Below, piece after piece: positions 15,689 through 37,019 of a stretch of 64,000 nt of DNA. The notes beneath the pieces were generated by a model. The model saw only the letters and a list, made by a program, of their open reading frames with translations, ran no database searches and was not told the origin of the DNA. How positions within the stretch are numbered: position 1 is the stretch's first letter; every line of letters starts with the position of its first letter. The translations under genes were made by a program, and so were the position numbers. Source of the DNA: Candidatus Nanohalarchaeota archaeon (GTDB taxonomy: Archaea; Nanohalarchaeota; Nanosalinia; Nanosalinales; Nanosalinaceae); assembly GCA_022729235.1 (NCBI GenBank), contig JALDAJ010000001.1, positions 288,001 to 352,000 on the forward strand. The letters run 5' to 3'.

Positions 15689-17161
15689 GTGGACATGCAA
15701 CCCGTAGTTCTCGTGGTTATGGACGGTGTAGGTTTACACGAAGAAGAGAAAGGTAACGCGTTCAGACAGGCGGACACACCTAACATCGATAGACTGATGG
15801 AAGAAAACGGTTACAAAGAGCTACAGGCATGGGGTCCTGCCGTAGGACTCCCCGAAGGATTCCAGGGCAACAGCGAGGTAGGGCATCTACACCTTGGCGC
15901 AGGTAGACGAGTACCCCAGAGACTCAAACGTATCAACGACTCAATAGAGAATGATGAGCTAGAGGAGAAAGAAGCACTGGCAGATGCGCTCGAACGCGCC
16001 GAGGAGAACGGTAATGCAGTACACCTCGCCGGCATCATATCCGACGGCGGCATACACGGACATATCGACCACCTTGAAGCACTGATGAGAACAACACAGG
16101 ACTATGAACTGGAAAAAGTGTGGCTCCACTGCTTTACCGATGGAAGGGACGTGGACCCGAAGAGCGCAGATAGATACCTCGATGAGATACGTGACTGCAT
16201 GGAAAAATATGACAGCGACTTCGGGTTCGCATCGATAATGGGCCGCTACTACTCGATGGACCGCGACCATAACTGGGACAGAACCCGCGATGCTTACAGG
16301 GCGATGACTCTCGGAGAGGGTTTCGGGTTCGAGAGACCAGAGGACGCAGTGGAAAAGACTTACGAGGACGGGGACTACGACTACTTTGTTATTCCCGCAG
16401 TGAATGAGTGTTACAATGGGATGAACAGCGAGGATGAACTTATCTTCTACAATTATCGCGCGGACAGAGAAGTAGAACTCTGTAAGGCGTTTCTATGGGA
16501 AGACTTCAGCGAGTTCGAGAACCCTGTCAGGCCGAACTTCACCTCGATGTTCCGGTACGAGAAAGATTTCGACAACCCTGTGATGTTCGAGAAGATGGTG
16601 GTTGAGGACACACTCGGGGAGAAGCTGGAGGACGCGGGACTGAAGCAGTTACGGATAACCGAGTCACAGAAAATCCCGCATATGACCTACTTCTTCAACG
16701 GCCAGAAAGAAATCGAATTCGAACACGAGGAAACGCACTTCGTGGAATCGGATAAAATCAAGGCGTACGACCAGAAGCCGGATATGCACGCCGATGACAT
16801 CACCGACATACTCGTAGAAGCGGTAGAGGAGGGCGAACACGACTTCATGATACTCAACTTCCCGAACGGTGACCTCGTCGGCCATACCGGCGATCTCGAA
16901 GCCGCTATAACCGCGATGGAGACCGTGGACAGGAACGTCGGCAGGATAGTCAACGCAGTAGAAGGTACCGACTACGCGTTACTGGTCACCGCGGACCACG
17001 GCAACTGCGAAGATATGGGAACAGAAGGCGAGCCAAGCACATCCCACACCTTGAACCCTGTACCATTGATACCTGTTAACTATGAAGGCGAGTTAGACAT
17101 TGAAGAAGGAGAGCTGTGGGAGGTAGAGAATGTTGTCGAGGATATAATGAAGCTAAACTAG
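15689..17161 (+). CDS. gpmI: 2,3-bisphosphoglycerate-independent phosphoglycerate mutase
   Basis: DGVG, GNSEVGH, DGRD, GRYYSMDRD, DLVGHTG, TADHGN and HTLNPVP motifs. Confidence 0.96.
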   Translation: MDMQPVVLVVMDGVGLHEEEKGNAFRQADTPNIDRLMEENGYKELQAWGPAVGLPEGFQGNSEVGHLHLGAGRRVPQRLKRINDSIENDELEEKEALADALERAEENGNAVHLAGIISDGGIHGHIDHLEALMRTTQDYELEKVWLHCFTDGRDVDPKSADRYLDEIRDCMEKYDSDFGFASIMGRYYSMDRDHNWDRTRDAYRAMTLGEGFGFERPEDAVEKTYEDGDYDYFVIPAVNECYNGMNSEDELIFYNYRADREVELCKAFLWEDFSEFENPVRPNFTSMFRYEKDFDNPVMFEKMVVEDTLGEKLEDAGLKQLRITESQKIPHMTYFFNGQKEIEFEHEETHFVESDKIKAYDQKPDMHADDITDILVEAVEEGEHDFMILNFPNGDLVGHTGDLEAAITAMETVDRNVGRIVNAVEGTDYALLVTADHGNCEDMGTEGEPSTSHTLNPVPLIPVNYEGELDIEEGELWEVENVVEDIMKLN

Positions 17162-17403
17162 TCAGGAGGATCACAGTCATCCAGTTCATCCATTTTGTCC
17201 GTCAATTCATCCTGTTTCTCTCCAGCACCTTCTTCATCATCTTCAGGCCACTGCGACTGGTACAGACTGCACTGTGCACTTTCACTCTGCCCACCGACAA
17301 AGTCGGAGAAGTCACCCGCCTCTCCCGTCACCATGAACACCGCTATCCCCGCGACTACGGCTCCAACCGTCGCGACGAGAACCATCTGTATTGTCAGGTT
17401 CAT
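17158..17403 (-). CDS. Small pilin-like protein without a charged leader
   Basis: N-terminal hydrophobic helix, short acidic head with two Cys; tandem with a pilin. Confidence 0.6.
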   Translation of the reverse strand: MNLTIQMVLVATVGAVVAGIAVFMVTGEAGDFSDFVGGQSESAQCSLYQSQWPEDDEEGAGEKQDELTDKMDELDDCDPPD

Positions 17404-17409
17404 ATCTAA

Positions 17410-17715
17410 TTATTCCTCTGTCTGGCTTCTGCAATCATATGTATCTTGACCAATTTGACCTTCAGCGTGTTCTATTCCCAGAACGTCAGCGCTCTGTCCT
17501 ACTATTCCTGCTCTCTCACAGCTTGAAGGCGTGCTATGCGTCCCGGAACTAAATCTACAGGTATTCTCGATAGTCGCGATACATTCCTGTTCGGCGCTGT
17601 CCCCGAAGATTCCTTGCAGGCTTCCCTGTGTCATGAAGATGACGGTCAGCGCGGTCATCATAAGTACTGATGCGGCAACGATCAGCGCCAGTGTCTGGGA
17701 CATTCCTTTACGCAT
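17410..17715 (-). CDS. Type IV pilin-like protein (class III signal peptide)
   Basis: MRKG|MSQTLALIVAASVLMM and four Cys in the head domain. Confidence 0.8.
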   Translation of the reverse strand: MRKGMSQTLALIVAASVLMMTALTVIFMTQGSLQGIFGDSAEQECIATIENTCRFSSGTHSTPSSCERAGIVGQSADVLGIEHAEGQIGQDTYDCRSQTEE

Positions 17716-17824
17716 ACTACCAAGTTTGCTTCCGCCAGTATAAAAGAGATGTGGAACGCCGGAGTTCGGTCGAATGATCTCAGGGGCTCATGAAAGAAAA
17801 ATAGAGAGAAATGTTCCAGGAACT

Positions 17825-18103
17825 CTACTCCTGGGTGATGTCGATCTGGATCGATGATACGTCCAGTTCCTCTCCTTCGTCAGTCTCGATCTGGTCTGTG
17901 TCGATCGAGATGTCATCAACTACTGCGTCCTCGATGAATTTTCTCTTGACCATTTCTGCGACGTCCACTGCCCGGGAGATAGCTTTTCCTCGAGCTTTAA
18001 CGTGGACAGGGTCCTGTCCTTCACTGAATTGGGTTACTACCGCGAGAACGTAGCTCATCGCGGGTTTGGAACCAACGTATACCGTGTTGTCGTCTTCTGC
18101 CAC
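17825..18103 (-). CDS. albA: Chromatin/RNA-binding protein Alba
   Basis: [30 protein letters not shown] and VSSIQI motifs. Confidence 0.95.
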
Positions 18104-18149
18104 TGGTGATCACCTAGCTCTATATTGGCAGATAACTGATAAAAATGGT

Positions 18150-19175
18150 TCAGTCCATGTCGTGGTCGTACTCGAAGATGAAATGTAAAGTATCTTCATT
18201 GGCGCTAGCACCCATAACTTCTTTCTCCGAATCAGAGAGGTCGAACTCCAGGGTAGCGCCGGTTACCTGTGAAGTTGCTTCAACATCGAATTCCTGCCCG
18301 TCAAACTCTTCCTTGCATTCACCATCCTCCTCAAAGATGTCCTCGTCCTGCTCTATCTCTTCATCCTCCGGACATTCTATCTCCTTTGTTCCTGTGCAAT
18401 CATCGATATCTTCATCAGTTATGGAGGTATCAAAATCGAAATCCGTGGAAGTATCCAGTTCTATCCATCCCGGTAAGTCAACTCCTCCCGAGATCCCGCT
18501 GGCAAGTCCATTGTTCTGGACAGCGCTGTTTTCCGCCCTTTCTCTTGCTGTGTCCCGGTAGGAGTCACTATCCAGATCTTCCTCACAGCTATCGGTAGAT
18601 GCGGGGCGAGTTGCCTCAGCCCATGAATCAGGGAGATCGTCCGTATCCATCTCTTCTCTCAGCTCCAGGGCAGCTTCCACGAGAAGCATGTACCGGTTCT
18701 CAGTATTGTTAACGGTTATCTCTTCTTCTAGGTATACCTCTGCCTGGGTCGATGTCGAGTCACAGATGACAGAGGAACGGCTGAAGGATAGCGTGATTTC
18801 TCTATCTTCATATTCGACACCGGCTAGTTCTGGATTCTCACATCCGAAAACCCGGTTTCTATCCTGGATTTTTGAGGCGATATCCTGCTCAAGTTCGCCA
18901 CGTATGCTCTCTATATCCGGGGCATCGTTCCAGCTCCTGGTCTGCTGTCCAAGTTCAAAAGCCACAGTATTGAAGGAGATATTGATGTCATCAGGAAGTT
19001 TCTCAGTGTAAATATCTGCTTTTACCTGCGACTCTGTAATCGTGTGTACGTCACCGCCGTAATATGAAACCGTCTCCCTCACCTCATGAGTCGAGTATAC
19101 CGATGATAGAAATCCTCCGAGCGTTATGGAAACCGCAGTCATAACCATCAGAAGACTTAAAGCCTCTCCCTTCAC
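18150..19175 (-). CDS. Large minor-pilin-like protein
   Basis: MKG| followed by a hydrophobic helix; acidic Cys-containing head; GTGA overlap with the upstream gene. Confidence 0.7.
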   Translation of the reverse strand: MKGEALSLLMVMTAVSITLGGFLSSVYSTHEVRETVSYYGGDVHTITESQVKADIYTEKLPDDINISFNTVAFELGQQTRSWNDAPDIESIRGELEQDIASKIQDRNRVFGCENPELAGVEYEDREITLSFSRSSVICDSTSTQAEVYLEEEITVNNTENRYMLLVEAALELREEMDTDDLPDSWAEATRPASTDSCEEDLDSDSYRDTARERAENSAVQNNGLASGISGGVDLPGWIELDTSTDFDFDTSITDEDIDDCTGTKEIECPEDEEIEQDEDIFEEDGECKEEFDGQEFDVEATSQVTGATLEFDLSDSEKEVMGASANEDTLHFIFEYDHDMD

Positions 19176-19600
19176 GAACTCGGCACCTCCACTGTAACCC
19201 TTACTGGACCTTCAACAGTAGGGACGTATGCTGATGACCTTACAGAAGGATTTCCCTCCTCCACCTCTATATTTTTTTCATCCACAGCGAACCGGTATTC
19301 CTCATGCGCACTTCCCAGCACTTCTTCTGCACGTTCCTCGATATCCTGCCCGGCATCAGTTCTCTCGTTACCGCTCATCGCCGGGTAATAGAAGAGGGTG
19401 TCCATGACATCCGGGTTCTCTGACTTCAGGATATTATTCATGGCGATCGCGGACTGGAATTCCGCGTTCGAGTGGTGTAACTCGGCGTATATAGCTCCTT
19501 CTACCGGGGTAGATGCCATGATAAAAAGCAGGTAAAATATCAGTAACGACAGGACTGCACTCCCGACTATGACCGTTACCAAGTCTATACTGCCTTTCAC
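19172..19600 (-). CDS. Pilin-like protein
   Basis: MKG|SIDLVTVIVGSAVLSLL. Confidence 0.75.
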   Translation of the reverse strand: MKGSIDLVTVIVGSAVLSLLIFYLLFIMASTPVEGAIYAELHHSNAEFQSAIAMNNILKSENPDVMDTLFYYPAMSGNERTDAGQDIEERAEEVLGSAHEEYRFAVDEKNIEVEEGNPSVRSSAYVPTVEGPVRVTVEVPSS

Positions 19601-20001
19601 GGTCCCGGGAACACCTCCAGTTTCTTGACTTCTTCATCCTCTTCCTCCTCATACTGGACCAACACAGAAGTCTCGAGCGGGACAATATCAACCATCCCAC
19701 AGGTATCATCTATATCCAGTAGAAACTCTCCATCGGCGAACAACGGCAGGTCGGTCGTGCATCCGACTCCCTCGTCATCATACAGCAACTCCTGAATATC
19801 ATCTTCGACTGTCACAACTCCAAGACGTTCATCCCGGTTCAGGAAGTAGAAAGTCCCTGCGGCAGCTTCGCCGTGGAACTCCGAGATCTGTATGAGATCC
19901 TCTACCTGTGCCTGTATCCCGGTCAACATCAGGGTTATCATAAAAGTAATAGCCACTATCCCGACAATCCAGGGGAGAACCTTTCTGACGTTCAACTGCA
20001 C
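19597..20001 (-). CDS. Pilin-like or single-TM protein (start uncertain, GTG 20001 or TTG 19995)
   Basis: N-terminal hydrophobic helix; coupled within the pilin operon; no KG site. Confidence 0.65.
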   Translation of the reverse strand: MQLNVRKVLPWIVGIVAITFMITLMLTGIQAQVEDLIQISEFHGEAAAGTFYFLNRDERLGVVTVEDDIQELLYDDEGVGCTTDLPLFADGEFLLDIDDTCGMVDIVPLETSVLVQYEEEEDEEVKKLEVFPGP

Positions 20002-20381
20002 TCACCTGTGCTTAGATGGGGTTGTAAACCGGATTTACTTATGCAGAGCTGGTCGAACTCCTCTCCGAGCTCATCTTCATCGTACCTGAAACGGATACCC
20101 GGGTCGATCATCTCAGAGCTATCTCCGGTGTTCAAGAAGAGATCTCCGTCAGATTCTTCCAGGACGAAATCTGTTCTGAAGTTCAGTGTTATATCCGCTT
20201 CATCCATAGAATCCGCCATATAGACCGCGTGGGACACCCTGTTAGTGATCATCGGCAGAGCCTCCTCTGCGATTGCATCTTCTACACCCATGACCGACTC
20301 TACTCCTATCCCCAGGACCGATACCGACATTATCGATCCCAGTACTATCAGGACTGTCGGTACAGTTGCAAATCCTTTCAT
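19992..20381 (-). CDS. Pilin-like protein
   Basis: MKG|FATVPTVLIVLG. Confidence 0.75.
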   Translation of the reverse strand: MKGFATVPTVLIVLGSIMSVSVLGIGVESVMGVEDAIAEEALPMITNRVSHAVYMADSMDEADITLNFRTDFVLEESDGDLFLNTGDSSEMIDPGIRFRYDEDELGEEFDQLCISKSGLQPHLSTGECS

Positions 20382-20776
20382 CCAAAACTTACCTCGCCCT
20401 CTGACTCATAATTAATCGTGACTTGAGTATTTTCACCGCCCTCGAACCCGTCTGAGCCAGCAACAGAGCAGTGAATATCCTCAGTCCTTTCTTGATTACC
20501 GTCTACCTTAAATATCGCGTTATCTCCGTCAATCTTTATCTCCTCGTCATCATCAAGATCTATGAGAACAGTATCGCTTCCTCCTTCATCACCGCAAACC
20601 TCGTTTATACTAGAGACAAGGTCGTTAAAAGGGCTTTGACCGCCGGAAAGAACATCTGCATCTCCCATCACACCCATCCATATCGACTGGAGTGCTGCCA
20701 GACCCATGGTCGCAGATATAGCGCTAGCTATCAATCCTGTAACTATTATAATCGACGCTGCCTCTCCCTTACGCAA
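20378..20776 (-). CDS. Pilin-like protein
   Basis: TTG at 20776 with a GGAGGTG SD gives MRKG|EAASIIIVTGLI. Confidence 0.75.
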   Translation of the reverse strand: MRKGEAASIIIVTGLIASAISATMGLAALQSIWMGVMGDADVLSGGQSPFNDLVSSINEVCGDEGGSDTVLIDLDDDEEIKIDGDNAIFKVDGNQERTEDIHCSVAGSDGFEGGENTQVTINYESEGEVSFG

Positions 20777-20991
20777 TCCGGACACCTCCCTGAAACCGAC
20801 CTTACATCAGAGTTTTGAACAACTGCTGAAACGTCTTCGGCATCATCTTCTGACTCTCCAACGTATTCATCGTAAAGCTCATCAATCGAGTCCTCACTCA
20901 ACTCAACGGTACCTGCTAAAACCGAGTAAACAGCTACGATAGCCAGGACTGCAAGTATAAAGGCGATTATTATGCCAGATTCCTTGTTCAC
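20746..20991 (-). CDS. Small single-TM pilin-like protein
   Basis: MNKESGIIIAFILAVLAIVAV; overlaps the next gene. Confidence 0.6.
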   Translation of the reverse strand: MNKESGIIIAFILAVLAIVAVYSVLAGTVELSEDSIDELYDEYVGESEDDAEDVSAVVQNSDVRSVSGRCPDCVRERQRRL

Positions 20992-21110
20992 AGGTTACCC
21001 CCCACAAACTCAAGCAGTGCGTCCGTATGGTTTTCCACCATTATAGCCAGGGCTACCAGTATAACAATTCCGATTACAAACGACAGCACAACCCATAGAG
21101 ACCGATCCAC
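20988..21110 (-). CDS. 40-aa single-TM microprotein (not in ORF track)
   Basis: MDRSLWVVLSFVIGIVILVALAIMVENHTDALLEFVGGNL; GTGA stop/start overlap with the 20991 gene. Confidence 0.7.
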   Translation of the reverse strand: MDRSLWVVLSFVIGIVILVALAIMVENHTDALLEFVGGNL

Positions 21111-21149
21111 TAGTAAAGTCTTTAATCCTCAGGAGTTTAAATAAAATCC

Positions 21150-21302
21150 TTACTCCCCGTTCTCGCCGCCGCCCAGAACCTCCATGATCTCCCCTACACC
21201 CTGCTCCATACCCGAGGAAACCATACCATACAGCAGCGCTATGAACATCACTACCAGCACGATACCCGCCACTATATGAACCGGTCTAGTCTCACCCTTC
21301 AT
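21150..21302 (-). CDS. 50-aa minimal pilin
   Basis: MKG|ETRPVHIVAGIVLVVMFIALLYGMV. Confidence 0.7.
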   Translation of the reverse strand: MKGETRPVHIVAGIVLVVMFIALLYGMVSSGMEQGVGEIMEVLGGGENGE

Positions 21303-21325
21303 CCTGGCGCTTCTAAGTAAGGTCT

Positions 21326-23752
21326 CTATGAGCATCCTAACGGCTCACCTTCCACAGTGAAACTTGTTACCTCAGTACTCCCGCTTCTCTCTTCAAGCAT
21401 AACACTCTCTACTCTTTTCTCCGAAACCTCGAGCGTCCTCTCATAGCTCCGGTCACCTCCAGCTAAATCCACAAGTAACTCATCCTCATCATAGTTCTCA
21501 ACAATCAACTCAAACTCCTCCACATCAAAGAAAACCTGACCCCCAGTCCCTCTTATATCAGTCATAGCAAAATGATTCTCACTTATCGCCGCCGCATTAG
21601 TGTCTGCATCTAGAATATCTCGAGGATCCGTTACTGTCAGATCTACTTCAACCTGCAAGAAAGCATCTTCAGGACCTTTATCTAGTCTCTCTGTACCACC
21701 TATGGTAGGGCGTTCGATAGCAAAGTAAGTAGATAGGTCATGCGCTCCTGATGTATCAACGATCAAGTTTCCATTGTCATCTATCCGGTAGTCTATTTCT
21801 ATCCTAAATAAATCCTCTTGATCTTCGTCATCCTCATCTTGATCTTCCTGCTTTATACCTACGATAATCTCGCTGTCAGTACCTAAATCACTGACACTGC
21901 TGGGACTAGCGATATACGGTTCTAAGTCTATATCCACAAGAGGAATAAGCCGTAATGTCACATCATCCAGCGCTCCCAGCGAATCAGAAGGTTCTACAGG
22001 CGTGACTATAATATCCTGTCTACCGGTTGAATCAAACCTCTTCTCAAAGGTGTTATCCTCTCCGAATCTCTCAAGATTGTAAACGTATTCATCACTTGCT
22101 CCGCCCTGATACATTTCTGTTATATCGTATTCATCATGATCCAGGCTCAGACCTAGACAGTCCACCGGGTCGACCGCGAGTTCTGGACGGTAAAACTCTG
22201 TATCGATCCATTCTACGCCGAGAAGTTCCTGTGTATCATGCTGTTCGAGCGCGGTATAGATAGGTATTTCCTGCATCTCTCCATCAGCCTCTCCAAGCTC
22301 GATTATCTCTGGCTCTGGAACCTCAAACTCACCTTCATCATTTATATCAAACCGTGAAATACTTGGCTCCGGGAGTTCCTCTCCATCTGCATCCTTTAGA
22401 GAGGTGCCAATTCCGATATAACTTAAAACATCTTCCAAACAGTTGTCGGCACCCGATTCTACCTCAACCCTTGGATAGACTACGTCCCTGAATATCGGGT
22501 CATCATCGCTGTACTGTTTTCTCTCATGGTTGATATCCGCTCCAGCATTAGCCTGCACAAAGCCCTCAGAGCCTTCACATACTAGATACTCCAGATTATT
22601 AGCCAAGTACCTGTGCTCTTGTATTAAATCGCCCTTATCAAGAAATTCCTCTACGTCAAATTCGTCAGAAGTAATAGTTGGGACATTAACCATCCTTACA
22701 CGGAACGCGTTCATGCTCTCAGGCCATCCGCCTTCACCAAAGTTGTAATCGTATAATCCTGTTCCTCTTCCATCTCTAACATCAAGTTCAAATCTCCCTT
22801 CACCGATACTATATTTCCACGCTCTCTCCCCAAAGGATAGGAGCATCGGTCCTTTAACACGATAAGCTGTGTCAGAGGTAGTTTCCACTTCATCTTCTTC
22901 AGGGTCAACCCAGTGAGGATTATCGGAGTTCTCCCAGTACTCCAATGTCTCTTCCGTGGTTAAAACCCCTTCCGGATAGAAGACAGCTGCTCTCTCCGCA
23001 CGTGTGAAGTCAGGAGCATTTTCATCTGTAATACCGCTATCGACGAGTTTTTCGTTGAGATGCATAGCCATAAGCCCAATATCTTCTATCACAAATGTTT
23101 GTTCATTTTCAAACCCGGTTGCTCCGTAAATTCCTTGAGCTGAGTGTTCCTCCCATTCTGACAATCCTAAGTCATCCAGCGAAACCATTCCTGAAATGAA
23201 ACTCAACGGATCAGTGACTATAGGATCTGCTCCCATGCAGTCCCCCGTGAAGGAGGTTTCTTTAACTAGGGTCTTGAGCGGATCTTCTTTCTCCTCATCG
23301 TCTTTCTCACCCCATCCGAAGTAAGTAAATTGACCCCCATCATCACCATCCAACATGCTATCTAGTTCATCACCGCTTTCCGTATCCAAGTCGTCCACAT
23401 CTACATCGACAAGGTGCATCTGTAAGTCCTCCGGTCCCAATTCGTTCTCTCCTGAAGAGGCAGGCTCCGGATCAAATTCATCATGCTGGTAGACCATCGA
23501 CCCGTAGGCACACTGCTGGGCGGCGAGCATGTTCCAGACCACTAGTCCGCGGAACTGTTTTTCTGCCTCATACGGGTCTTCAACGTCTTCTCCTATCGTC
23601 ACCACGCCGTCCAGTGACTGGAGCTGTTCCATTAGATTATTCGTCCTTGGTTCGAGCGAGTGGTCGGTTATGGTTGTGAGGGCTCCGATAAACGCCGCTC
23701 CTATCATGACCGCGACCGCCATGACACCGACATTGCTGATGATTCCTTTCAT
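21326..23752 (-). CDS. 808-aa pilin-leader protein, putative pilus-associated adhesin
   Basis: MKG|IISNVGVMAVAVMIGAAF followed by a large acidic extracellular region. Confidence 0.7.
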   Translation of the reverse strand: MKGIISNVGVMAVAVMIGAAFIGALTTITDHSLEPRTNNLMEQLQSLDGVVTIGEDVEDPYEAEKQFRGLVVWNMLAAQQCAYGSMVYQHDEFDPEPASSGENELGPEDLQMHLVDVDVDDLDTESGDELDSMLDGDDGGQFTYFGWGEKDDEEKEDPLKTLVKETSFTGDCMGADPIVTDPLSFISGMVSLDDLGLSEWEEHSAQGIYGATGFENEQTFVIEDIGLMAMHLNEKLVDSGITDENAPDFTRAERAAVFYPEGVLTTEETLEYWENSDNPHWVDPEEDEVETTSDTAYRVKGPMLLSFGERAWKYSIGEGRFELDVRDGRGTGLYDYNFGEGGWPESMNAFRVRMVNVPTITSDEFDVEEFLDKGDLIQEHRYLANNLEYLVCEGSEGFVQANAGADINHERKQYSDDDPIFRDVVYPRVEVESGADNCLEDVLSYIGIGTSLKDADGEELPEPSISRFDINDEGEFEVPEPEIIELGEADGEMQEIPIYTALEQHDTQELLGVEWIDTEFYRPELAVDPVDCLGLSLDHDEYDITEMYQGGASDEYVYNLERFGEDNTFEKRFDSTGRQDIIVTPVEPSDSLGALDDVTLRLIPLVDIDLEPYIASPSSVSDLGTDSEIIVGIKQEDQDEDDEDQEDLFRIEIDYRIDDNGNLIVDTSGAHDLSTYFAIERPTIGGTERLDKGPEDAFLQVEVDLTVTDPRDILDADTNAAAISENHFAMTDIRGTGGQVFFDVEEFELIVENYDEDELLVDLAGGDRSYERTLEVSEKRVESVMLEERSGSTEVTSFTVEGEPLGCS

Positions 23753-23753
23753 G

Positions 23754-28987: not shown

Positions 28988-29839
28988 ATGAAATTCCAGC
29001 TGTTCGGGAGACTGAGGGACGATGAATCAGGCGGAACAGATCAGCAACGTGAAGCGCCACAAGGAGCTCCTGGACAAGAAGAGACGCCACAGGCACTTGG
29101 CGGAGGTAGTCTTGAAAGAACAGTTGATAACCTGTTCTCACAGGGTTACGCTGAAGAGGAGATAAGACAGGAACTCCAGGGACAGTATTCACAGACAGAA
29201 ATCGACCGCGCTATAAACAATGCGGTTGCATCAACAGCCACTCCTGACACCGGTCCTGGACCGAAACCCATGACACCATACCAAAGTGAGGAAGATGCAG
29301 TAAGCCCTGTAGATGAGGGTTTCTCACAAAACGATGATACTATGGATCAGAGAGAACAAGAACCACAGCAACCAAACCCGCAGCCAGCGCCTCCTGCGCC
29401 ACAGGAGCAGACACCGCAGGAACCACAGGAAGAACAGGGCGCCCACGGCTCTAACGTGGAGGAGCTGGTGGAGACTATCGTCGCTGAAAACTTTGACCGC
29501 GTCGAGAGAGAGTTCGAGAACGTTTACCGGGAAATCGATGAGCTGAAAGATACAGCAGAAGATCTAGAGCAGCGGGTCCACGATCTGGAAGTCCGTGACG
29601 ACGAGGACCAGACACAGTTCATACAGAAAATGGATGAGATGGAGGAACACATCGACTCTTACCAGTCACGTATAGGCGGGCTGGAGAAGGCTTTCCAGCA
29701 GGTGCTTCCTTCCCTGGTCGACAACGTCAGGGACCTGACAGATCTTGTGCAGGATATCAAGCAGGAAAGAGGGATTGAAACGGATAAGAACGTTTCAAGC
29801 CAGGATATTGACGATATAGACGTTGAAGACTGGAACTGA
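28988..29839 (+). CDS. Small helical domain plus Q/P linker plus coiled-coil protein
   Basis: GYAEEEIRQEL...EIDRAI domain, Q/P-rich linker, C-terminal heptads; GGGTGA SD. Confidence 0.85.
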   Translation: MKFQLFGRLRDDESGGTDQQREAPQGAPGQEETPQALGGGSLERTVDNLFSQGYAEEEIRQELQGQYSQTEIDRAINNAVASTATPDTGPGPKPMTPYQSEEDAVSPVDEGFSQNDDTMDQREQEPQQPNPQPAPPAPQEQTPQEPQEEQGAHGSNVEELVETIVAENFDRVEREFENVYREIDELKDTAEDLEQRVHDLEVRDDEDQTQFIQKMDEMEEHIDSYQSRIGGLEKAFQQVLPSLVDNVRDLTDLVQDIKQERGIETDKNVSSQDIDDIDVEDWN

Positions 29840-29843: not shown

Positions 29844-30347
29844 TCAGTCACTGTTTCCGCCAGCGGTTATAGCCACGATGATAAGCAGGAATAGCAGTAT
29901 AAGTACAGGCATAACCACTTCCTGCCACGTATCTTCTATATCACCGAGGAACGCACCCAGATCTGCCTGCGTAACAAACGCACCTATGAAAACTATTGCC
30001 GCAATCGCTACAGCCGACCACAGCCTTATACTCTCCGTCTTCTCGTCCTCAGCAATGTCAATCCCCGCCACCGCCATCAAAATCATTAAACCCAGGAACC
30101 CGAAAACACCAAAAGTAAGGGCTGCAGCCAGATTAGTCATTATACCTGGCGGTAGGAAGAAGTACGCACCTCCGATCGCCAGGAATGCGACAGCCAGAGA
30201 TATAACCCCGTTTACCTGCTCATCCTCACTGATAACCTTATACTTCTCAAGGACGCCATAGGTCACCGCCAGAACCAGCAACCAGGGAAAGAACAGCTGG
30301 AAAACATCCATATCCGCCATCATCAACACTATCTGTTCGAATGCCAT
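29844..30347 (-). CDS. Multi-pass membrane protein (PWLLxxxxxYxxLE family)
   Basis: About 5 TM segments; paralog of the adjacent gene. Confidence 0.8.
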   Translation of the reverse strand: MAFEQIVLMMADMDVFQLFFPWLLVLAVTYGVLEKYKVISEDEQVNGVISLAVAFLAIGGAYFFLPPGIMTNLAAALTFGVFGFLGLMILMAVAGIDIAEDEKTESIRLWSAVAIAAIVFIGAFVTQADLGAFLGDIEDTWQEVVMPVLILLFLLIIVAITAGGNSD

Positions 30348-30350: not shown

Positions 30351-30932
30351 TTATCCCTCCGAATCAGGTCCCGGCCCATGTTCGAAGAGTAAAGGCCTCA
30401 ATGTACTGTCTCCGCTCGGATCACGCATAGTGAACCAGAGAACACCTAATATCACAGCAGCCCATATAAGACCGGTATCAAAGCTGTACTGGACAACCCC
30501 GGCAATCGCATCTATCGCTGTTTCTCCTTCACCAAGCGTCAAGGCATCAAGACCTCCCGATACAGTAAATGCCACGGCCGCGATAATCAGTCCCAGAACA
30601 GCCATGACATTCTTCTTGAAGTAATCCGTGGTACCTGTAAGCCCGAGGAGCATGAAAAGCCCCAGAACACCTATGACTCCAACCGTCAGCGTCCCCAGGT
30701 AGCTGACGAAGAACATCTGGTATGCCGGATTTTGAACTATGAAGAATGATACAAAGAACGCGAATATTAAAGCGATAAGTGGCGGAAAGTTATCTTTCTC
30801 TTCTATAACCGGTACATTCTCTAGAACCGCGTAGAAGACCAGATACGATAGTAAGAACGGCAGTACTCCTATGAAGAAGTCTGCCTGTTCTAGTGTTGTT
30901 AACAACTGCGTGAAACTCCCTACATCAGCCAC
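30351..30932 (-). CDS. Multi-pass membrane protein (PFLLxxxxxYxxLE family)
   Basis: LPFLLSYLVFYAVLE; about 5 TM segments. Confidence 0.8.
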   Translation of the reverse strand: MADVGSFTQLLTTLEQADFFIGVLPFLLSYLVFYAVLENVPVIEEKDNFPPLIALIFAFFVSFFIVQNPAYQMFFVSYLGTLTVGVIGVLGLFMLLGLTGTTDYFKKNVMAVLGLIIAAVAFTVSGGLDALTLGEGETAIDAIAGVVQYSFDTGLIWAAVILGVLWFTMRDPSGDSTLRPLLFEHGPGPDSEG

Positions 30933-30936: not shown

Positions 30937-31194
30937 CTATTCACCTTCATAACCCTGCTTCCTGTTGTGCAGGTTCATCAGCCATAGCTCGCGGGCTATA
31001 ATCATCAATGCGAGCATCGTGATCCATGGCTCGATTATCCGACCGAAGGAAACGATTCCTACATTCTGCGGCGCCCAGAACATGGTGTACAACGCAACGA
31101 CTATAGCTCCGAGCGAAAGAATGGCTATAACAAACTCGTCGAGGATATTCTCGACCTGGTAGAAGTATTCGTGTAGTTTTCTGTCATTCATCAC
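30937..31194 (-). CDS. Small two-TM membrane protein
   Basis: Two hydrophobic helices; operonic spacing. Confidence 0.75.
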   Translation of the reverse strand: MMNDRKLHEYFYQVENILDEFVIAILSLGAIVVALYTMFWAPQNVGIVSFGRIIEPWITMLALMIIARELWLMNLHNRKQGYEGE

Positions 31195-31374: not shown

Positions 31375-32568
31375 TTATCCTACCGCAGGAGCATAGTTCC
31401 CGACTCCTGCTTCTACCTGCATCTCCGGCTCATCCTGTATTCCGGTATCCTCTAAAGCATCTTCTATGGTGTCTGCCGTCATCTCGTACAGATCCTGGTC
31501 GCAGACATCGTAATCGTTCAACTTGGTTCCGGGCGTGGAGTTGACCTCGTAAGGAACGATGGTTTTCTTTCCATCCTCATCGACCTTCCTGACACAGTCG
31601 ATAGCGAACACATCCATATCCAGCTCTTCACCGACAAGGTAGGAAACAAGCCTCTCCTCGATTCCTGAATCCATCGGCTCTTCCGAGTACTCTCCACCGT
31701 TGTTGATGTTGGTCGGTTCAGGCTCTCCGGAATCTATCTCCCTGTCGACAGCCTCATGTTCATCCCCAGCAACCCATATCCTGCTGTCAACTATATCCTC
31801 GTATACTTCGCTCTCGCTGTAGTGGTCGACGAACTCTTCGTACAGGAATCCATCCTCGAACTCATCTATTTCACCGAACTCCAGGAACTCTATACCCTCG
31901 CCGTGAGAACCTTCAAACGGTTTCTTCACAACTATATCGTCTTCTTCCATTTCGCCCTCAGCACGCTCGTAATCCCGGTAAGTCTCAGGGATCTCGATAT
32001 CCATGAAATCATTGTCCAGTTTCTCCTCTTCCTCATCCCAGTATTCTTCCAGGAACTCCATCCATTCCTCATCGAGTTCCTCTCCGGGCTCGTATTCTTC
32101 CTGCGCGAACTCGACAAGTTCCTGACGGCCGACATTCTCAAGATTTTTTAGCGCTCTCTTAGTTATCTCTTTATCGGAGCAAAGTGCAGCTCCCTGAGGA
32201 GAGTTAACAAATTCCACACCGTATTCTTCTTCCAGCCTCTGCATCTGCAATACGTTTTCAGGAACTTTGTCCTCAGATAGATCTGACTTGAAGCTGGCCT
32301 GACGGTAGAAAACGACAGTATCTTCAAGTTCCGAGACCGGGACACCGTTGACCTCAAGTTCTCCATTTCTCTCCTCTATATCATCCGGCTGCAAATCGGT
32401 AACGCTCAATCCGCGACCACTCAGTTCGAGAACAGTATTGGCACGAGTCTTATTGTTCCAAGCACCTGCGTACAGAACATCAGCCTCATCTACAGATGTA
32501 TCTCTCATCAAACCATTAGCTCTGCGCCTTCTTCTATCCAACTCCGAACTGAACAACCACCAGACCAT
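31375..32568 (-). CDS. RimK/LysX-like ATP-grasp ligase
   Basis: KKPFEGSHGEGI, YEEFV, DSRIWV, TNINNGG, FAIDCV and EVNSTPG motifs. Confidence 0.85.
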   Translation of the reverse strand: MVWWLFSSELDRRRRRANGLMRDTSVDEADVLYAGAWNNKTRANTVLELSGRGLSVTDLQPDDIEERNGELEVNGVPVSELEDTVVFYRQASFKSDLSEDKVPENVLQMQRLEEEYGVEFVNSPQGAALCSDKEITKRALKNLENVGRQELVEFAQEEYEPGEELDEEWMEFLEEYWDEEEEKLDNDFMDIEIPETYRDYERAEGEMEEDDIVVKKPFEGSHGEGIEFLEFGEIDEFEDGFLYEEFVDHYSESEVYEDIVDSRIWVAGDEHEAVDREIDSGEPEPTNINNGGEYSEEPMDSGIEERLVSYLVGEELDMDVFAIDCVRKVDEDGKKTIVPYEVNSTPGTKLNDYDVCDQDLYEMTADTIEDALEDTGIQDEPEMQVEAGVGNYAPAVG

Positions 32569-32631: not shown

Positions 32632-34167
32632 CTAGAAAATATTTCTCGGGTCAGCAATATTCTTCGTTTTATCAATCAGTCTCCGTACCTCCTGCCTAAT
32701 CTGGTAGAACTCGTTAATTATGGATCTCACATCGCCTCTTAAACTTTTCAAGCCATCGCGTAGGACTATTAGTTTTATATTGCCATCGTCATCCTCCATG
32801 ACATCACTTGCTCCGGCCACTCCGCTAAACTCACTTCTTATCTGATTATATGCATTCTCAATAAGATTATTATTCAAAATAGATTCTATTAATCCGAGAG
32901 CATCCTCCAATTCCTTTTTCTCAGCTTCGGTCATCTTTAGCTCTTCATTCAGATATTTTCTGGCAGATTCGATTTCCTTACCCTGATCCAGGAATGCATT
33001 ACGTAGCTTTTGTAACTCCTCCTCAAGCACTTCAAGTTCTTTGCCAATTTCGTATGAAGCACTCTCCAACTCCTCATCACCATACTTCTGTGCTAACTTA
33101 TCAAGAAGTTTATCTTCCTTTACAGCTCGCTCGACTTCGTTCGGGAGAGCTTCCCACATCTGCTCGACTTGACCATACTCTTGGACGAATCTAGTTAATT
33201 CACTGAATTCGTCCTTTTCTTCAACCAGTTCCTTATCCGCTATCTTTTTCAAGCGGATAACATCTTGTTCTAGCTGATAGAACCGATTCATCAGAACATC
33301 CAAAACATCTTCTAGTACATCTAAATCATTAGCAGGATCACTCCAATCACGCCTCAGAATCTGACTCAATCCCGCTCTGATTTCATCCGCAAGTTTTTCA
33401 AAGTTCTTGGCGCCTTCAACCGCTCTATCACTGTCTTCAAGAAAGGCCTTAGCGTCCTGTACCGCGTTATATATATCAGACTGACTTCTCTCGGCAAACT
33501 GCTCCAAATCATCCACTGCAATCTCCATAAGTTCAAGTGCCTTCTCTAGTTCTTGCTCAGCATGTCTAGCCTCGGCGTCACCTTCTTCCCCTCCTCTGCG
33601 CATAGCATCCTGCTCCTCTCGCTTGACCTCATTGAGAAGTTCATCTGCCTCTTTTTCCCTGTTCTTGGCATCGGCGAGGAGCTCTTTGTTGGCGGCTACT
33701 GCCTCTTTAGTTCCACCCCAGATACCGTACCTGAACATCCCGTATAGGACTGCGAAGGTTCCTATGGCGAATAGAAGGATTATCGAGTCGCGCGTAATAG
33801 CCAGTATAGGTGCAAACCAGCCGCTTCCAAGGAATACCAGGAATAATAGGATAGAGAACGCGACCAGTCTCCACTTGGATTCTTCCCTGCCTACCCCTGC
33901 TTTTCCTGTAAAGCGGTCGAGCCAGCCAAGCTTGTCCAGAAATGCCTCAAGACCTATAAAGAAACCATACCAGTAAACAGCTACAGCTGCCAGAGTTACA
34001 AGTGCGTTTTGGTCTGTCAGAGGAGCACCCACATATCTCTCGAATACGCCTCCCAGAACGCTTACAATAGCACTTGCTAGCTGATCTACCGGCGTATGTG
34101 TCGAAGCAGCAGCGAGAGAAACAAATGAAATCACACCTAGTAAATAGACAAGGATTTTTTTGTCCAT
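32632..34167 (-). CDS. Signal peptide plus multi-TM plus long helical/coiled-coil protein
   Basis: Cleavable-looking signal (…SLAAA-S), about 3 TM segments, roughly 350-aa helical C-terminus. Confidence 0.8.
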   Translation of the reverse strand: MDKKILVYLLGVISFVSLAAASTHTPVDQLASAIVSVLGGVFERYVGAPLTDQNALVTLAAVAVYWYGFFIGLEAFLDKLGWLDRFTGKAGVGREESKWRLVAFSILLFLVFLGSGWFAPILAITRDSIILLFAIGTFAVLYGMFRYGIWGGTKEAVAANKELLADAKNREKEADELLNEVKREEQDAMRRGGEEGDAEARHAEQELEKALELMEIAVDDLEQFAERSQSDIYNAVQDAKAFLEDSDRAVEGAKNFEKLADEIRAGLSQILRRDWSDPANDLDVLEDVLDVLMNRFYQLEQDVIRLKKIADKELVEEKDEFSELTRFVQEYGQVEQMWEALPNEVERAVKEDKLLDKLAQKYGDEELESASYEIGKELEVLEEELQKLRNAFLDQGKEIESARKYLNEELKMTEAEKKELEDALGLIESILNNNLIENAYNQIRSEFSGVAGASDVMEDDDGNIKLIVLRDGLKSLRGDVRSIINEFYQIRQEVRRLIDKTKNIADPRNIF

Positions 34168-34199: not shown

Positions 34200-34682
34200 T
34201 TAGTCACCCGTAGCTCCAGCAGTCGTTGAGAAACTTTTGAGCAGGAGATACGCAGCTAGAAGTCCGCCGACCGCCAGACCCAGATATATTATACCTCCGA
34301 AGACTATAGCCACGGCATCATTCACCAACTGGAAGAACTGTGTAGGCACCAGCATACCGGTTATGACCAGCGAGAGCATCATTGACTGCCTCTTTATCCG
34401 TTTTTTCTCCCCTTTTTTCTGGTAGGGATGGCGTAGCTTGTCGTCTTCCGCCAGAGTGAACATCATAGCCCTTTCAAGACCAAGCTGGAATACAAGAGCG
34501 ATCAGCAGGAACGGTGCAACCAGTTGCGTCAGTATCTCCTCCTGTGTCTCGTACTGAGGTATCTCAAAGCCAGCGTCGGCGTCTATACCTTCATCATAGT
34601 AGTGTGAGGCAGAAGCCACTCCTGTGAAAAATAAGGTAATCAACAGGAGAGCTCCCAGACGTTCATCCAAAATCGAGATCAC
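34200..34682 (-). CDS. Membrane protein with signal peptide (start uncertain)
   Basis: ASA-S cleavage-like site, APFLLIALVFQLGLE motif, 3 TM segments. Confidence 0.75.
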   Translation of the reverse strand: MISILDERLGALLLITLFFTGVASASHYYDEGIDADAGFEIPQYETQEEILTQLVAPFLLIALVFQLGLERAMMFTLAEDDKLRHPYQKKGEKKRIKRQSMMLSLVITGMLVPTQFFQLVNDAVAIVFGGIIYLGLAVGGLLAAYLLLKSFSTTAGATGD

Positions 34683-34926
34683 CTTCTAAGTCTCCCCCTA
34701 TATCTCCCTGTCCTCTACCTTCCCGTACTTTTTCGAGGTAGACTGGAACAACTTCGTCAACCAGGAACCCTGCTACCAGACCCGCACCGCCGACCACGGC
34801 AAGCTCGGACAGGTATTCAGAGAGTCCTGTGAAATCACCTACCATCGCAGAGATAGCGGTATGTGAAAGCAGGTAACCCGCGACAGCTGCGGAGGGAAAT
34901 GCAACGAATTTCCAGGGGTCTCTCAT
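34663..34926 (-). CDS. Small two-TM membrane protein
   Basis: Two Gly/Ala-rich hydrophobic helices. Confidence 0.7.
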   Translation of the reverse strand: MRDPWKFVAFPSAAVAGYLLSHTAISAMVGDFTGLSEYLSELAVVGGAGLVAGFLVDEVVPVYLEKVREGRGQGDIGGDLEGDLDFG

Positions 34927-34982
34927 GTTAGAATGCTGGATGACCTTGATTTATATGACTTGTTTGGTTTCCTAGAGCGAGG

Positions 34983-37019
34983 TCACGGCGAGCTGACCTT
35001 CTCAAGTTTCTTTTCGGCGTTCTCAAGAATTTTCTCCTCATTTCTCTTCCTTTCCATTATATTTCCTAATAGGCTCTTGACCCTCTGGTTTATCTCAACC
35101 GCCTCATGTATATTATGGAGGACTCTGTTCGCATCTACACCCCGGCTTGATATCTCCTTGTTAAGCTCCGTCACGCTATCTCTCAGAGACATTATTTCTG
35201 TTTCGCCCCAGAGCTGGTCAAGTTTCTCGGAGTTGTCATAATTTTCGTTCAGGAACTCTATATCCTGGAGACCTAAGTCTTCTTCCCTGTTTAAGATGCC
35301 CAAGCATTTCTGCATCTGATCATAGAGGTGGTCGAACAGCATAATCGTCTCCAGTGACTCTCCCAGGTCGTACGGGTCGCCTTCGTATACACCTCTGTTA
35401 ACAGCCTGCTCTGCTACCATGATTAGGAACTCCTCTCGTTCTCCGCTGAAGTCTTCATATGCTGTGTTGAGAGCTACGTGTATCCTATAAGCCTCCCTGT
35501 ATCTCTCCATCCACTCTTCTAGGTGAGCTAGCTCTCTTCTCACATGCTTCTCCTCATCTTTTTCCACATCACTGACCTCTCTCACTTCATCCTCGATTCC
35601 TCTCATATCTTGTATCATCTTAGCCGTTCCTGCCCCCGCACTATCAGCTGTGTCATATCCACTTTCCTTGCCGGCTTTTTCCAGGTAGCTCGTAACACCT
35701 CCACCTATAGACTTTGCGCGGAACTTACCGTCCTTGGTGAACCCATCTTCGAGTTCACTCAGAGCCTCTCTCAGATTTTTAAGGAGGTGTATAACACGGA
35801 TATACCGGTCATATATATGCTTGAGATCTTCTAACTCCTCTTTTTCGTCCCTGAGAACGGTTCTGGCTTCTTTCAGCACTTCTTCCAGCTCCTTCTCCTC
35901 CACCTTAAGAAGATTCTCTACGTCATGCCTGTCCAGGACGGAAAGAACTTTCTGGACGCTCTCGGTCGATCTCCCTCCCTCTCTTATTTCCTGTATGACG
36001 TACCATAGGAACTCGTTGTTCACCTCCCTGTGATGTTTCAGTTCCTGTAGAAGAATAGTCATGTTCTGCTGGTTCTGCACCACCATCTGGACGAGGTTCA
36101 CAAAGGTGTTGAAATTGATGTCGCCGTAGTCGTCACCTATATGGATATCGCCTGTCTTGATATCCTCTAGATGTACCGCGTTTCTTTCCTGCATCACGTT
36201 CATCATCTGCTCAAGCATCACCACGAACTGGTCTCCTGCCGGCGTGTCCACCTCGACACTTATCTCGTTCTCCAGGTCCTGTAGGATGTTGATTTCAGCG
36301 CTCAACTCATTTACATTGACGTTCAGCTGTTCTACCTCGGCTTTTAGCTCGTTTAACACGTTTATAATCATCTCATCTTTCTCGGAGACTCTATTCTCCA
36401 TGAGAAACGCCAAGATAGCTTCAAGATCATTGTCAACGTGAGCAAAGGCAGATGCCTCCGCAGACATTCCCTCACCCCCAGGAGCGCCACCGCCCGATAT
36501 CTCGTTCTTGATCTCTACTTCCATTTCCTGTATAGCCCCAACTATCGCATCCCCTATCTGGTTTATCTGGTTGACTATGACCTCTGTGTCTCCACCATCT
36601 ACACCGCGCCCTATCCGCATGATCTGCTCAAGCTCATTAGCTACCTCCACTATAGTTTCTCCTGAGTCGACGGCGACACCTCGTGATTCGAGGTCCTGGA
36701 CAACGTTTACCAGACCCCGGATAACAGTTGAGATATTTTCTATCTCTGCGCTTATGTTGTTGACCTGTTCTTGTGTCGCATCGATACTGCCTATGAGTTC
36801 GTCCGGTACTTCAAGCTCTATAGAATCAGGTATATCTGGACCTTCAGGCGGTTCCCCCGTTCCCTCGTCCTCTGGTTCAGGTCCCGGTCCTCTATCTCTG
36901 GGAGAGTCATTTCCTCTACGCGCAGGGGACGTTGAGCCCTCGTGCATGAAGATTATCACCATCAGCAATAGGAAAAGCCCGGCTAGAGTCGCCAGAACCG
37001 GGTCGCTGTGAAGACTCAT
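34983..37019 (-). CDS. N-terminally anchored 678-aa helical/coiled-coil protein
   Basis: Single N-terminal TM, Pro/Gly linker, I/V/N/Q-rich heptads, charged helical C-half. Confidence 0.8.
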   Translation of the reverse strand: MSLHSDPVLATLAGLFLLLMVIIFMHEGSTSPARRGNDSPRDRGPGPEPEDEGTGEPPEGPDIPDSIELEVPDELIGSIDATQEQVNNISAEIENISTVIRGLVNVVQDLESRGVAVDSGETIVEVANELEQIMRIGRGVDGGDTEVIVNQINQIGDAIVGAIQEMEVEIKNEISGGGAPGGEGMSAEASAFAHVDNDLEAILAFLMENRVSEKDEMIINVLNELKAEVEQLNVNVNELSAEINILQDLENEISVEVDTPAGDQFVVMLEQMMNVMQERNAVHLEDIKTGDIHIGDDYGDINFNTFVNLVQMVVQNQQNMTILLQELKHHREVNNEFLWYVIQEIREGGRSTESVQKVLSVLDRHDVENLLKVEEKELEEVLKEARTVLRDEKEELEDLKHIYDRYIRVIHLLKNLREALSELEDGFTKDGKFRAKSIGGGVTSYLEKAGKESGYDTADSAGAGTAKMIQDMRGIEDEVREVSDVEKDEEKHVRRELAHLEEWMERYREAYRIHVALNTAYEDFSGEREEFLIMVAEQAVNRGVYEGDPYDLGESLETIMLFDHLYDQMQKCLGILNREEDLGLQDIEFLNENYDNSEKLDQLWGETEIMSLRDSVTELNKEISSRGVDANRVLHNIHEAVEINQRVKSLLGNIMERKRNEEKILENAEKKLEKVSSP

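Follow-up and report, generated by a model that had tools for sequence, protein, structure and literature searches.

A large part of archaeal diversity belongs to the DPANN group, whose members live through contact with host cells, and we know of no molecular machine for this contact that has been demonstrated so far. Does the locus described here encode a machine of this kind, and how much of it belongs to one conserved unit? It lies in a 64 000-nucleotide stretch (the window; positions 288001-352000 of contig JALDAJ010000001.1) of the single-contig 1.03-Mb genome (1028 kb) of a Candidatus Nanohalarchaeota archaeon, and it is built around a secretion ATPase, a membrane platform protein and a row of pilin-like genes. 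An original prediction from the DNA alone had taken about 20 kb of the window (17158-37019) as an extended type IV pilus-centred apparatus for host attachment or invasion. We find that the locus is real and strongly conserved and that, as had been held, it is richer than a type IV filament-type locus of ATPase, platform and pilin alone. Judged from the gene content of relatives, only part of the 20 kb is a conserved unit, and the boundary drawn earlier is too generous. With moderate confidence, we interpret the locus as one of the type IV filament-type assembly machines conserved in cluster-2 DPANN, in which small subunits would form the filament, large variable pilin-like proteins would bind the host and coiled-coil proteins would serve as a cytoplasmic scaffold. 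Its conserved core, as read from synteny, is the motor, a pair of soluble coiled-coil proteins (CC147 and CC283, of 147 and 283 residues) and a set of membrane proteins with five transmembrane (TM) segments (the 5-TM proteins).

Genes were called on the window with our own longest-open-reading-frame (ORF) caller. The encoded proteins are very acidic and, with their named close homologues, identify a nanohaloarchaeon. From 28498 to 18150 on the minus strand the ORFs form a single dense row in which neighbours overlap or are separated by gaps of at most 39 bp. The row runs from the 756-residue ATPase through the 730-residue platform, micro-ORFs of 38 and 60 residues and an 808-residue pilin-like protein to further micro-ORFs of 61, 40 and 81 residues and five pilin-like proteins of 129-341 residues; past its end stand an Alba gene and two genes with an N-terminal TM. 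On the divergent side, beyond a 33-bp A/T-rich spacer, the plus strand carries CC147 and CC283, and farther upstream the minus strand resumes with two 5-TM paralogues and genes for an 85-residue, an ATP-grasp-like, a 511-residue, a 160-residue, an 87-residue and a 678-residue protein. The block lies between DUF357 and Dph5 genes at one edge and iPGM at the other. All of the components that the original prediction had listed were recovered by ORF calls and family scans, including the two divergent coiled-coil genes and the two long membrane-anchored helical proteins (Table 1).

The ATPase matches PF00437 at 49.7 bits (cut-off 24.9) and its four catalytic motifs are intact (Walker A, residue 468; Asp box, 495; Walker B, 545; His box, 574), in agreement with its initial identification. 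FlaI is the best NCBIfam model, with 132.6 of the 550 bits that its cut-off requires, and TadA scores 123 bits; by these scores the protein is a divergent member of the family, an equivalog of neither. The closest match in the PDB is 2oap, a GspE-type ATPase of Archaeoglobus (95 bits, residues 317-667), and CpaF and FlaI structures were also matched. The predicted model of residues 1-320 has a pLDDT (predicted local distance difference test) of 89.5 and gave no Foldseek match, generic three-helix-bundle matches (Z of at most 8.4) over residues 91-175 being the only ones. The consensus of the relatives has cysteines in this N-terminal region, which are absent from the ATPase of the window. Eight homologues among the 120 matches listed are about 1250 residues long and carry an intein (Intein_splicing) and LAGLIDADG domains (LAGLIDADG_3), and split ATPase matches are interrupted within the Asp box, at residues 492-499. 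Many orthologues contain an intein at this point of the catalytic Asp box, at about residue 495 (for example G006:C48, G021:C3, G013:C2, G028:C8 and G039:C11; P0021, P0041 and P0043), and one orthologous ORF of 2013 residues suggests two inteins.

The platform matches PF00482 at 42 bits in two stretches, with TadC-like halves at approximately residues 98-349 and 427-615. At the three other pilus loci of the genome the platform is split into two genes, so that the earlier term 'fused double platform' is a fair description of this single gene. At two related loci (L025, of genome G029, and L054) a second platform gene stands divergent beside the ATPase, where the coiled-coil pair would stand; in G029 the CC283 gene is found on another contig.

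CC147 and CC283 have neither a TM segment nor a signal peptide. The alignment divides CC283 into four parts. A short N-terminal stretch is basic; it is followed by a small helical domain, in which the motif G-Y-S-x-x-E-I is repeated, and by a linker rich in P and Q. The C-terminal part is a coiled coil, which contains a conserved GLEKAFKQ-LP-L motif and matches FlaC_arch (PF05377; 28.6 bits, a marginal pass of the 27.8 cut-off). The alignment profile also matches the coiled coil of reovirus sigma-1 (6gao, E 1.9e-5). The 33-bp spacer contains TATA-like stretches ∼27 bp from each of the two start codons, which may be promoter elements.

In its ATPase, platform, cytoplasmic or anchored coiled coils and FlaC_arch match, the locus resembles the archaellum motor (ArlI, ArlJ and ArlC/D/E or ArlX). 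Archaellum or pilus genes have been described in nanohaloarchaea (La Cono et al., 2020, PMC7443923; Hamm et al., 2019, PMC6642349; these and the other papers cited here are represented by excerpts), and archaella-like stalks were reported on another nanohaloarchaeon (PMC7443923). The FlaC_arch domain, the rank of FlaI as best model for the ATPase and these stalks would fit a reduced archaellum-like rotary organelle for the swimming of free cells. We nevertheless consider such an organelle very improbable, since the FlaI score is far under its cut-off and Pfam and NCBIfam scans of the window gave no match to the FlaH/ArlH, FlaF/G (ArlF/G) or archaellin families. Furthermore, the KaiC/ArlH-like gene of the genome adjoins a different ATPase, which is patchy among relatives, and the clade of the present ATPase is distant from the other ATPases of the genome (see below). 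The scans of the window gave no match to prepilin peptidases either, bearing out the absences noted at the outset.

The 5-TM proteins form a family without a name. The original prediction had proposed four related membrane proteins, and the relationship holds: the two adjacent paralogues are linked by BLASTP (1e-6), the protein encoded at 34200-34682 was recruited by iterated hidden Markov model (HMM) searches (E 5e-8, then 4e-13) and the N-terminal membrane part of the 511-residue protein aligns with the latter in hhalign (probability 94%). An AlphaFold2 model of the 167-residue member (pLDDT 79.5, predicted template-modelling score 0.47) has no Foldseek match at E <=0.001, the best Z of 6.4 being within the noise for helical proteins, and the ESM Atlas returned unnamed archaeal clusters only. 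Among the 120 matches listed for the 5-TM profile, all 11 that carry an organism name are from DPANN and none has a Pfam domain.

Within the phylum, an ATPase orthologue (defined at E <=1e-45) is present in 61 of 70 genomes and in 27 of the 28 of high quality; full-length orthologues are 54-87% identical, and paralogues score below 120 bits. Synteny was followed by tblastn in 20 loci of ∼20 kb, taken from the 61 matching genomes with preference for long contigs and a good spread. The platform is present in all 20 loci, CC147 and CC283 in 19 each and the two adjacent 5-TM genes in 18 and 16, and CC283 was found in 57 of the 70 genomes.

Relatives beyond the phylum tell which of these genes travel together. 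A search with the ATPase over 1.84 billion representatives returned 281 relatives at E <=1e-30, the full-length ones 33-46% identical, with Micrarchaeota, Altiarchaeota and Methanolobus zinderi as the sources of the named ones. Scanning species genomes with the ATPase alignment yielded 593 relatives, and the 80 best loci among them were kept. Apart from Nanohaloarchaea, the titles of these name Aenigmatarchaeota, Woesearchaeota, Pacearchaeota and Nanoarchaeota, with ATPases at 46-55% identity. HMMs widened from the nanohaloarchaeal families, applied to loci with enough flank (one locus, L061, was dropped for having no intact ATPase ORF), found CC147 in 46/58 and CC283 in 46/58 of the wider DPANN loci and 5-TM genes in 32/46, mostly as two to four tandem copies. 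All five of the other DPANN whole genomes searched contain 5-TM genes, also where these are unlinked to the ATPase. In four other DPANN lineages the ATPase has the coiled-coil pair and the 5-TM genes in synteny with it, so that the original prediction's own condition for refutation, accessory genes out of synteny in relatives, did not arise. At five Methanolobus-type metagenome loci the ATPase-platform pair stands amid exonuclease VII, cytochrome c assembly and flavin reductase genes, and a profile search of the flanks found CC147, CC283 or 5-TM genes at none of them (0/5); in this comparison, which consists of those five loci, the accessory genes are not equally common outside DPANN.

The distribution of the ATPase itself is close to universal. 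At a cut-off of E <=1e-90, with 45-57% identity, orthologues were found in 120 of 121 sampled genomes from the phylum of G075 (locus titled Aenigmatarchaeota) and in 197 of 201 from that of G076 (locus titled Woesearchaeota). A FastTree phylogeny of 119 ATPases (ORFs of 620-900 residues only, with intein-bearing and cut ones left out, and including 17 representatives hand-picked from 150) places the DPANN sequences in one clade of 95 rows with an SH-like support of 95. The clade splits into a Woese-, Pace- and Nanoarchaeota group and an Aenigma- and Nanohaloarchaea group; ATPases of the Micrarchaeota, Methanolobus and Altiarchaeota types fall outside it, and the other ATPases of the genome are far from it (branch 1.12). 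The loci titled 'uncultured Methanosarcinales archaeon' might have been free-living carriers, but this was rejected, since McrA is found in none of five genomes checked (four with this title and one titled Armatimonadota), the genomes measure 0.9-2.5 Mb and their ATPases lie inside the Woesearchaeota group. The records concerned (L060, L074, L091 and L092, and L099, titled 'Armatimonadota bacterium') have DPANN-type ATPases, and their titles or binning are probably wrong. Three further loci of uncultured archaea (L035, L048 and L051) form a small DPANN ATPase subclade without coiled-coil or 5-TM genes at the locus; unrelated genes for proteins of 420-500 residues flank the ATPase on both sides.

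The pilin-like genes behave differently from the motor. Thirteen ORFs with an N-terminal TM, with the 38-81-residue micro-ORFs among them, lie on the minus strand between 17158 and 24049, matching the roughly 13 pilin-like or single-TM genes and the microproteins counted originally. A genome-wide script, working at the level of the motif with cleavage presumed, selected ORFs with a class III-type [KR]G motif followed by a hydrophobic helix; it picked out eight of the 13, and a ninth (21150-21335) was recognized by eye from an internal Met. The genome contains 34 such ORFs, and as eight of these fall within 7 kb of a 1028-kb genome, behind the platform (17410-24049), the row is far from a chance arrangement; most of the others cluster at other ATPase loci (contig 146-150, 168-177, 279-280 and 659-672 kb). 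Directly behind the platform, on the same strand, one to four ORFs of at most 95 residues occur at 35 of the 83 loci with a platform. At 25 of these 35, one such ORF has a two-cysteine tail with the last Cys at or near the C-terminus, and these two-cysteine mini-pilins are found in nanohaloarchaeal loci and in loci titled Aenigmatarchaeota. The best conserved pilin in the phylum is the 101-residue protein behind Alba (11 of 20 loci, 32-75% identity by tblastn), which is a candidate major pilin. Most of the other pilin-like genes were recovered by tblastn in 0-4 of the 20 loci; they hold their position and not their sequence, and the row is fast-evolving and sometimes relocated. The 808-residue protein, a candidate adhesin or large minor pilin, has no Pfam family, and the ESM Atlas gave no usable match. 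The Alba gene (TIGR00285) inside the row had not been listed originally and is an embedded housekeeping gene. In 12 of the 20 related loci Alba, a chromatin- and RNA-binding protein, keeps its place between the pilin row and the last two pilin-like genes.

PF00437 has five matches above the cut-off in the genome and one below it, and one of the five is a PIN-KH ATPase and not a pilus motor. Three loci other than the present one carry pilus genes. The locus at contig 162001-180000 contains GatE, thermosome, Mpg, a coiled-coil protein, four pilins, an ATPase, two TadC proteins and an RFC-like AAA protein, and its ATPase is equally universal (41/41 relatives). The locus at contig 266001-286000, which ends 2 kb before the window, contains a 645-residue ATPase with a PilB3_C domain, the KaiC/ArlH-like gene, two TadC proteins and two pilin- or archaellin-like genes, and that at contig 656-675 kb contains an ATPase, two TadC proteins, pilins and the sole prepilin-peptidase candidate; the ATPases of these two loci are patchy among relatives.

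Several observations weigh against the filament-assembly interpretation. The peptidase candidate (contig 669.8 kb) is below the family cut-offs (Peptidase_A24 24.3 and 22.3 against 26.5 bits; FlaK 16.5 against 330). The FlaC_arch match of CC283 is 0.8 bits over its cut-off, and the sigma-1 match is a generic coiled-coil likeness. At least three N-terminal-TM ORFs stand behind the platform in only 28 of 48 wider loci (by title, in 4/4 of Nanohaloarchaea, 8/8 of Aenigmatarchaeota, 3/11 of Woesearchaeota and 0/2 of Nanoarchaeota); with the pilin arrays so often away from the motor, the conserved unit is the motor and its partners and not the filament genes. Finally, near-universal single-copy conservation of the ATPase at 45-57% identity across phyla, together with the inteins in the Asp box, goes beyond what a simple adhesin system would lead one to expect.

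Some of these observations could point to an essential envelope-crossing machine instead of an adhesive pilus, in which a short pseudopilus, like those of type II secretion or competence systems, would drive the export of contact proteins or the uptake of host DNA, lipids or cytoplasm at the junction between the cells. The presence of the ATPase in 61/70, 120/121 and 197/201 genomes of three phyla, its conservation and Asp-box inteins, and the cohesion of motor, coiled-coil pair and 5-TM genes while pilin arrays are often elsewhere are all consistent with such a machine, as is the lack of lipid, nucleotide and amino-acid synthesis described for nanohaloarchaea (PMC6642349). We regard it as unlikely, however, because Pfam and NCBIfam scans recognized no substrate, nuclease, DNA-binding or channel gene at the locus, because universality is not distinctive, a second conserved pilus locus in the genome being just as universal, and because a long row of variable pilin-like proteins suits surface display. 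The near-universal conservation leaves room for a more essential role in secretion, uptake, contact, transport or bridge formation.

The genes upstream of the two adjacent 5-TM paralogues bear on the extent of the unit. According to the broadest interpretation, that of the original prediction, all 20 kb, with the ATP-grasp gene and the long anchored coiled coils as parts of it, would be one co-evolved contact or invasion apparatus with helical proteins that reach the host. The gene order from Dph5 to iPGM is indeed kept in much of the nanohaloarchaeal family, the 160-residue (34200-34682) and 87-residue (34663-34926) genes each occur in 13/20 loci, the membrane domain of the 511-residue protein belongs to the 5-TM kin, and coiled-coil proteins of such loci have been likened to viral attachment fibres (PMC11291902). 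The 85-residue gene is also found in 13/20 loci. However, the 678-residue protein has no detectable homologue in the 20 loci, the ATP-grasp-like gene is present in four and the 511-residue gene in ten, and outside the phylum the 87-residue gene was found at 0/80, the 85-residue gene at 3/80 and the ATP-grasp-like gene at 3/80 of the kept loci. The housekeeping genes Alba (12/20) and Dph5 share the collinear block. The claim of a single conserved unit of about 20 kb thus fails, and the broad interpretation is distinctly unlikely. The 85-residue membrane protein is conserved within the nanohaloarchaeal family only, and the long coiled-coil proteins and the ATP-grasp gene are lineage-specific. 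As to the ATP-grasp ligase itself, the 397-residue gene does have a weak match to the RimK family, far below the curated score (TIGR00768, 28.6 bits against 143.4), with no Pfam family and carbamoyl-phosphate synthase in the PDB at E 0.18. Positional analogues of the 678-residue protein are anchored proteins of 312-581 residues in four loci and a TM-less 313-residue protein in locus L008.

The orientation of the anchored proteins is a further point against fibres that reach the host. In the 678-residue protein four arginines directly follow the TM and no basic residue precedes it; in the 511-residue protein the start is signal-like and the number of further TMs ahead of the coiled coil is odd. 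By the positive-inside rule both coiled coils are therefore probably cytoplasmic. Since the anchored pair would be on the cytoplasmic side and the soluble pair has neither TM nor signal, the four coiled-coil proteins are more likely to be motor scaffolds than extracellular contact fibres.

For the filament-assembly machine that we favour, the following arrangement is proposed. The secretion ATPase, as a hexamer and with its additional N-terminal region, would dock onto the two-domain membrane platform, and together they would lift proteins with class III signals from the membrane into a surface filament, these having been processed beforehand by a prepilin peptidase encoded elsewhere in the genome. 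The filament core would most likely be a small conserved subunit, either the 60-residue two-cysteine mini-pilin or the 101-residue pilin, with the larger fast-evolving pilin-like proteins, including that of 808 residues, as minor or tip subunits that give host-binding specificity. CC147 and CC283, one of them with a FlaC-like domain, would share the divergent promoter region with the ATPase and probably form a cytoplasmic motor scaffold (compare ArlC/D/E or ArlX of the archaellum), and the tandem 5-TM proteins would be membrane partners. In the nanohaloarchaeal family the 5-TM set would have been expanded: one copy would have gained a long coiled coil by fusion, and another anchored coiled-coil protein would have joined the locus. 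Host attachment, as proposed originally, is a plausible role for the locus.

Pili of the Tad/Flp and Epd kinds are built of short pilins without a globular head (described in part in PMC13705601). The very short pilin-like subunits beside the platform (38-81-residue precursors) resemble these; the two-cysteine tails and giant pilin-like companions are differences, and no Flp or Epd family was matched.

The kind of locus described here has already been published, and the window contains a further member, as the original prediction had suspected. Hamm et al. (2024; PMC11291902, excerpts) described two conserved type IV pilus-like loci with coiled-coil proteins in cluster-2 DPANN, detected several of the locus proteins by proteomics in another nanohaloarchaeon and compared the coiled-coil proteins to the sigma-1 fibre (6GAO). 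The context given for Locus 1 (GatE, chaperonin, Mpg and NTPase) stands elsewhere in the present genome, at contig 162-180 kb, and the coiled-coil protein of that locus was rejected as kin of CC283 or CC147, the likeness being marginal and of a coiled-coil nature only (E 0.01-0.02). By elimination and likeness, the locus in the window best fits Locus 2: both have a CpaF-type ATPase and TadC platform beside a sigma-1-like coiled-coil protein (the CC283 profile matches the same structure) and the same lineage range. The excerpted text on Locus 2 makes no mention of the 5-TM family, the FlaC-like domain, a second coiled-coil gene forming a pair or the mini-pilins. Full-text literature searches returned nothing on the 5-TM family, the two-cysteine mini-pilins or a FlaC-like domain in the coiled-coil protein, some of which supplements may hold. 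In addition, the coiled-coil proteins likened to attachment fibres in that study are read here as cytoplasmic.

Likeness is also seen to subclade 4F of the type IV pili, which Makarova, Koonin and Albers (2016; PMC4858521, excerpts) noted as 'also found in nanoarchaea, cognate pilins not identified'. Compared by features (PMC4858521, PMC13705601), the two share an N-terminal addition to the ATPase, cysteine-rich in relatives, and a cytoplasmic coiled-coil partner, and the Methanolobus ATPase is a full-length relative of that in the window (34% identity); the ATPase of the window differs in having no such cysteines, and the Methanolobus-type loci differ in having no coiled-coil or 5-TM genes. 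A PLoS Genet 2026 survey (PMC13705601, excerpts) found that DPANN systems rarely form ordered loci, from which the locus in the window differs. DPANN pilus islands with unannotated pilins were noted by Makarova et al. (2019; PMC6393860, excerpts).

Table 1. Features of the locus, in window coordinates (n/20, nanohaloarchaeal loci; n/80, kept loci of the wider scan).
Feature	Position	Strand	Basis or distribution
81-residue acidic protein, N-terminal TM	17158-17403	-	3/20
101-residue pilin-like protein, MRKG motif, cysteine-rich, behind Alba after 109-bp gap	17410-17715	-	
Alba gene	17825-18103	-	TIGR00285, 117 bits
341-residue pilin-like protein, KG motif, closes dense row	18150-19175	-	Cluster of 12 members
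142-residue pilin-like protein, KG motif	19172-19600	-	
134-residue protein, N-terminal TM	19597-20001	-	
129-residue pilin-like protein, MKG motif	19992-20381	-	Cluster of 11 members
135-residue pilin-like protein, LRKG motif	20378-20785	-	
81-residue ORF, N-terminal TM	20746-20991	-	
40-residue single-TM micro-ORF	20988-21110	-	Cluster member in relatives
61-residue ORF, internal MKG motif, one TM	21150-21335	-	ORF calls
808-residue pilin-like protein, MKG motif, N-terminal TM, very acidic	21326-23752	-	BLASTP cluster of 16 members
60-residue mini-pilin: RKG motif, TM helix, short two-cysteine tail, last Cys C-terminal	23754-23936	-	
38-residue micro-ORF, MRKG motif, one TM	23933-24049	-	Motif script
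Platform, 730 residues, nine predicted TMs, two TadC/T2SSF-like halves	24030-26222	-	PF00482 in two stretches
Secretion ATPase, 756 residues, ∼300-residue N-terminal extension	26228-28498	-	PF00437, 49.7 bits
A/T-rich divergent intergenic region of 33 bp, ATPase/CC147	28499-28531	.	Sequence inspection
CC147, soluble coiled-coil protein	28532-28975	+	No TM
CC283, soluble protein	28988-29839	+	PF05377, 28.6 bits
167-residue 5-TM protein, family without a name	29844-30347	-	18/20
193-residue 5-TM paralogue	30351-30932	-	BLASTP 1e-6 to neighbour; 16/20
85-residue membrane protein	30937-31194	-	13/20; 3/80
397-residue acidic protein, weak RimK-like ATP-grasp match, peripheral, patchy	31375-32568	-	4/20
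511-residue protein: signal-like N-terminus, membrane domain, ∼360 residues of coiled coil	32632-34167	-	Cluster member; 10/20
160-residue membrane protein, divergent 5-TM family member	34200-34682	-	13/20
87-residue protein, one weak TM	34663-34926	-	13/20; 0/80
678-residue protein, N-terminal TM, long coiled coil, variable	34983-37019	-	0/20 by tblastn

Other genes of the window lie outside the block. Just past iPGM, on the minus strand, are genes for a 510-residue soluble coiled-coil protein (12574-14106) and a 491-residue protein without any family (14140-15615); a 568-residue coiled-coil protein similar to the former adjoins the peptidase candidate in the locus at contig 656-675 kb. On the other side, a gene cluster at 41048-51384 encodes N-anchored or secreted proteins that have Ig-like, CARDB and CarboxypepD_reg domains, and 52125-56150 encodes a 956-residue 8-TM protein and its 384-residue partner, both without families. 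The proteins of these last two regions may be further surface or contact proteins.

The locus is among the very few gene sets common to nearly all cluster-2 DPANN, with a motor ∼50% identical across phyla, and several conserved partner proteins of this pilus machine are unstudied in the literature. Several cultured nanohaloarchaeon-host pairs have been described (including those of PMC11291902, PMC7443923 and PMC6642349, each represented by excerpts), and the analysis names concrete targets: the two-cysteine mini-pilin, the 101-residue pilin, the 808-residue pilin-like protein, CC283 and CC147, and the 5-TM family. A bolder proposal, tentative and doubtful as it stands, is that the motor module (the ATPase, the platform, the two coiled-coil proteins taken as cytoplasmic and the private 5-TM family), vertically inherited since the ancestor of cluster-2 DPANN and retained by nearly all of their genomes, would be the engine of a host-contact organelle, a retractable pseudopilus able to pierce the envelope of the host and to open, or to feed, a cytoplasmic bridge for lipids, nucleotides and proteins. 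If this were true, the machine would be essential to these archaea and not accessory.

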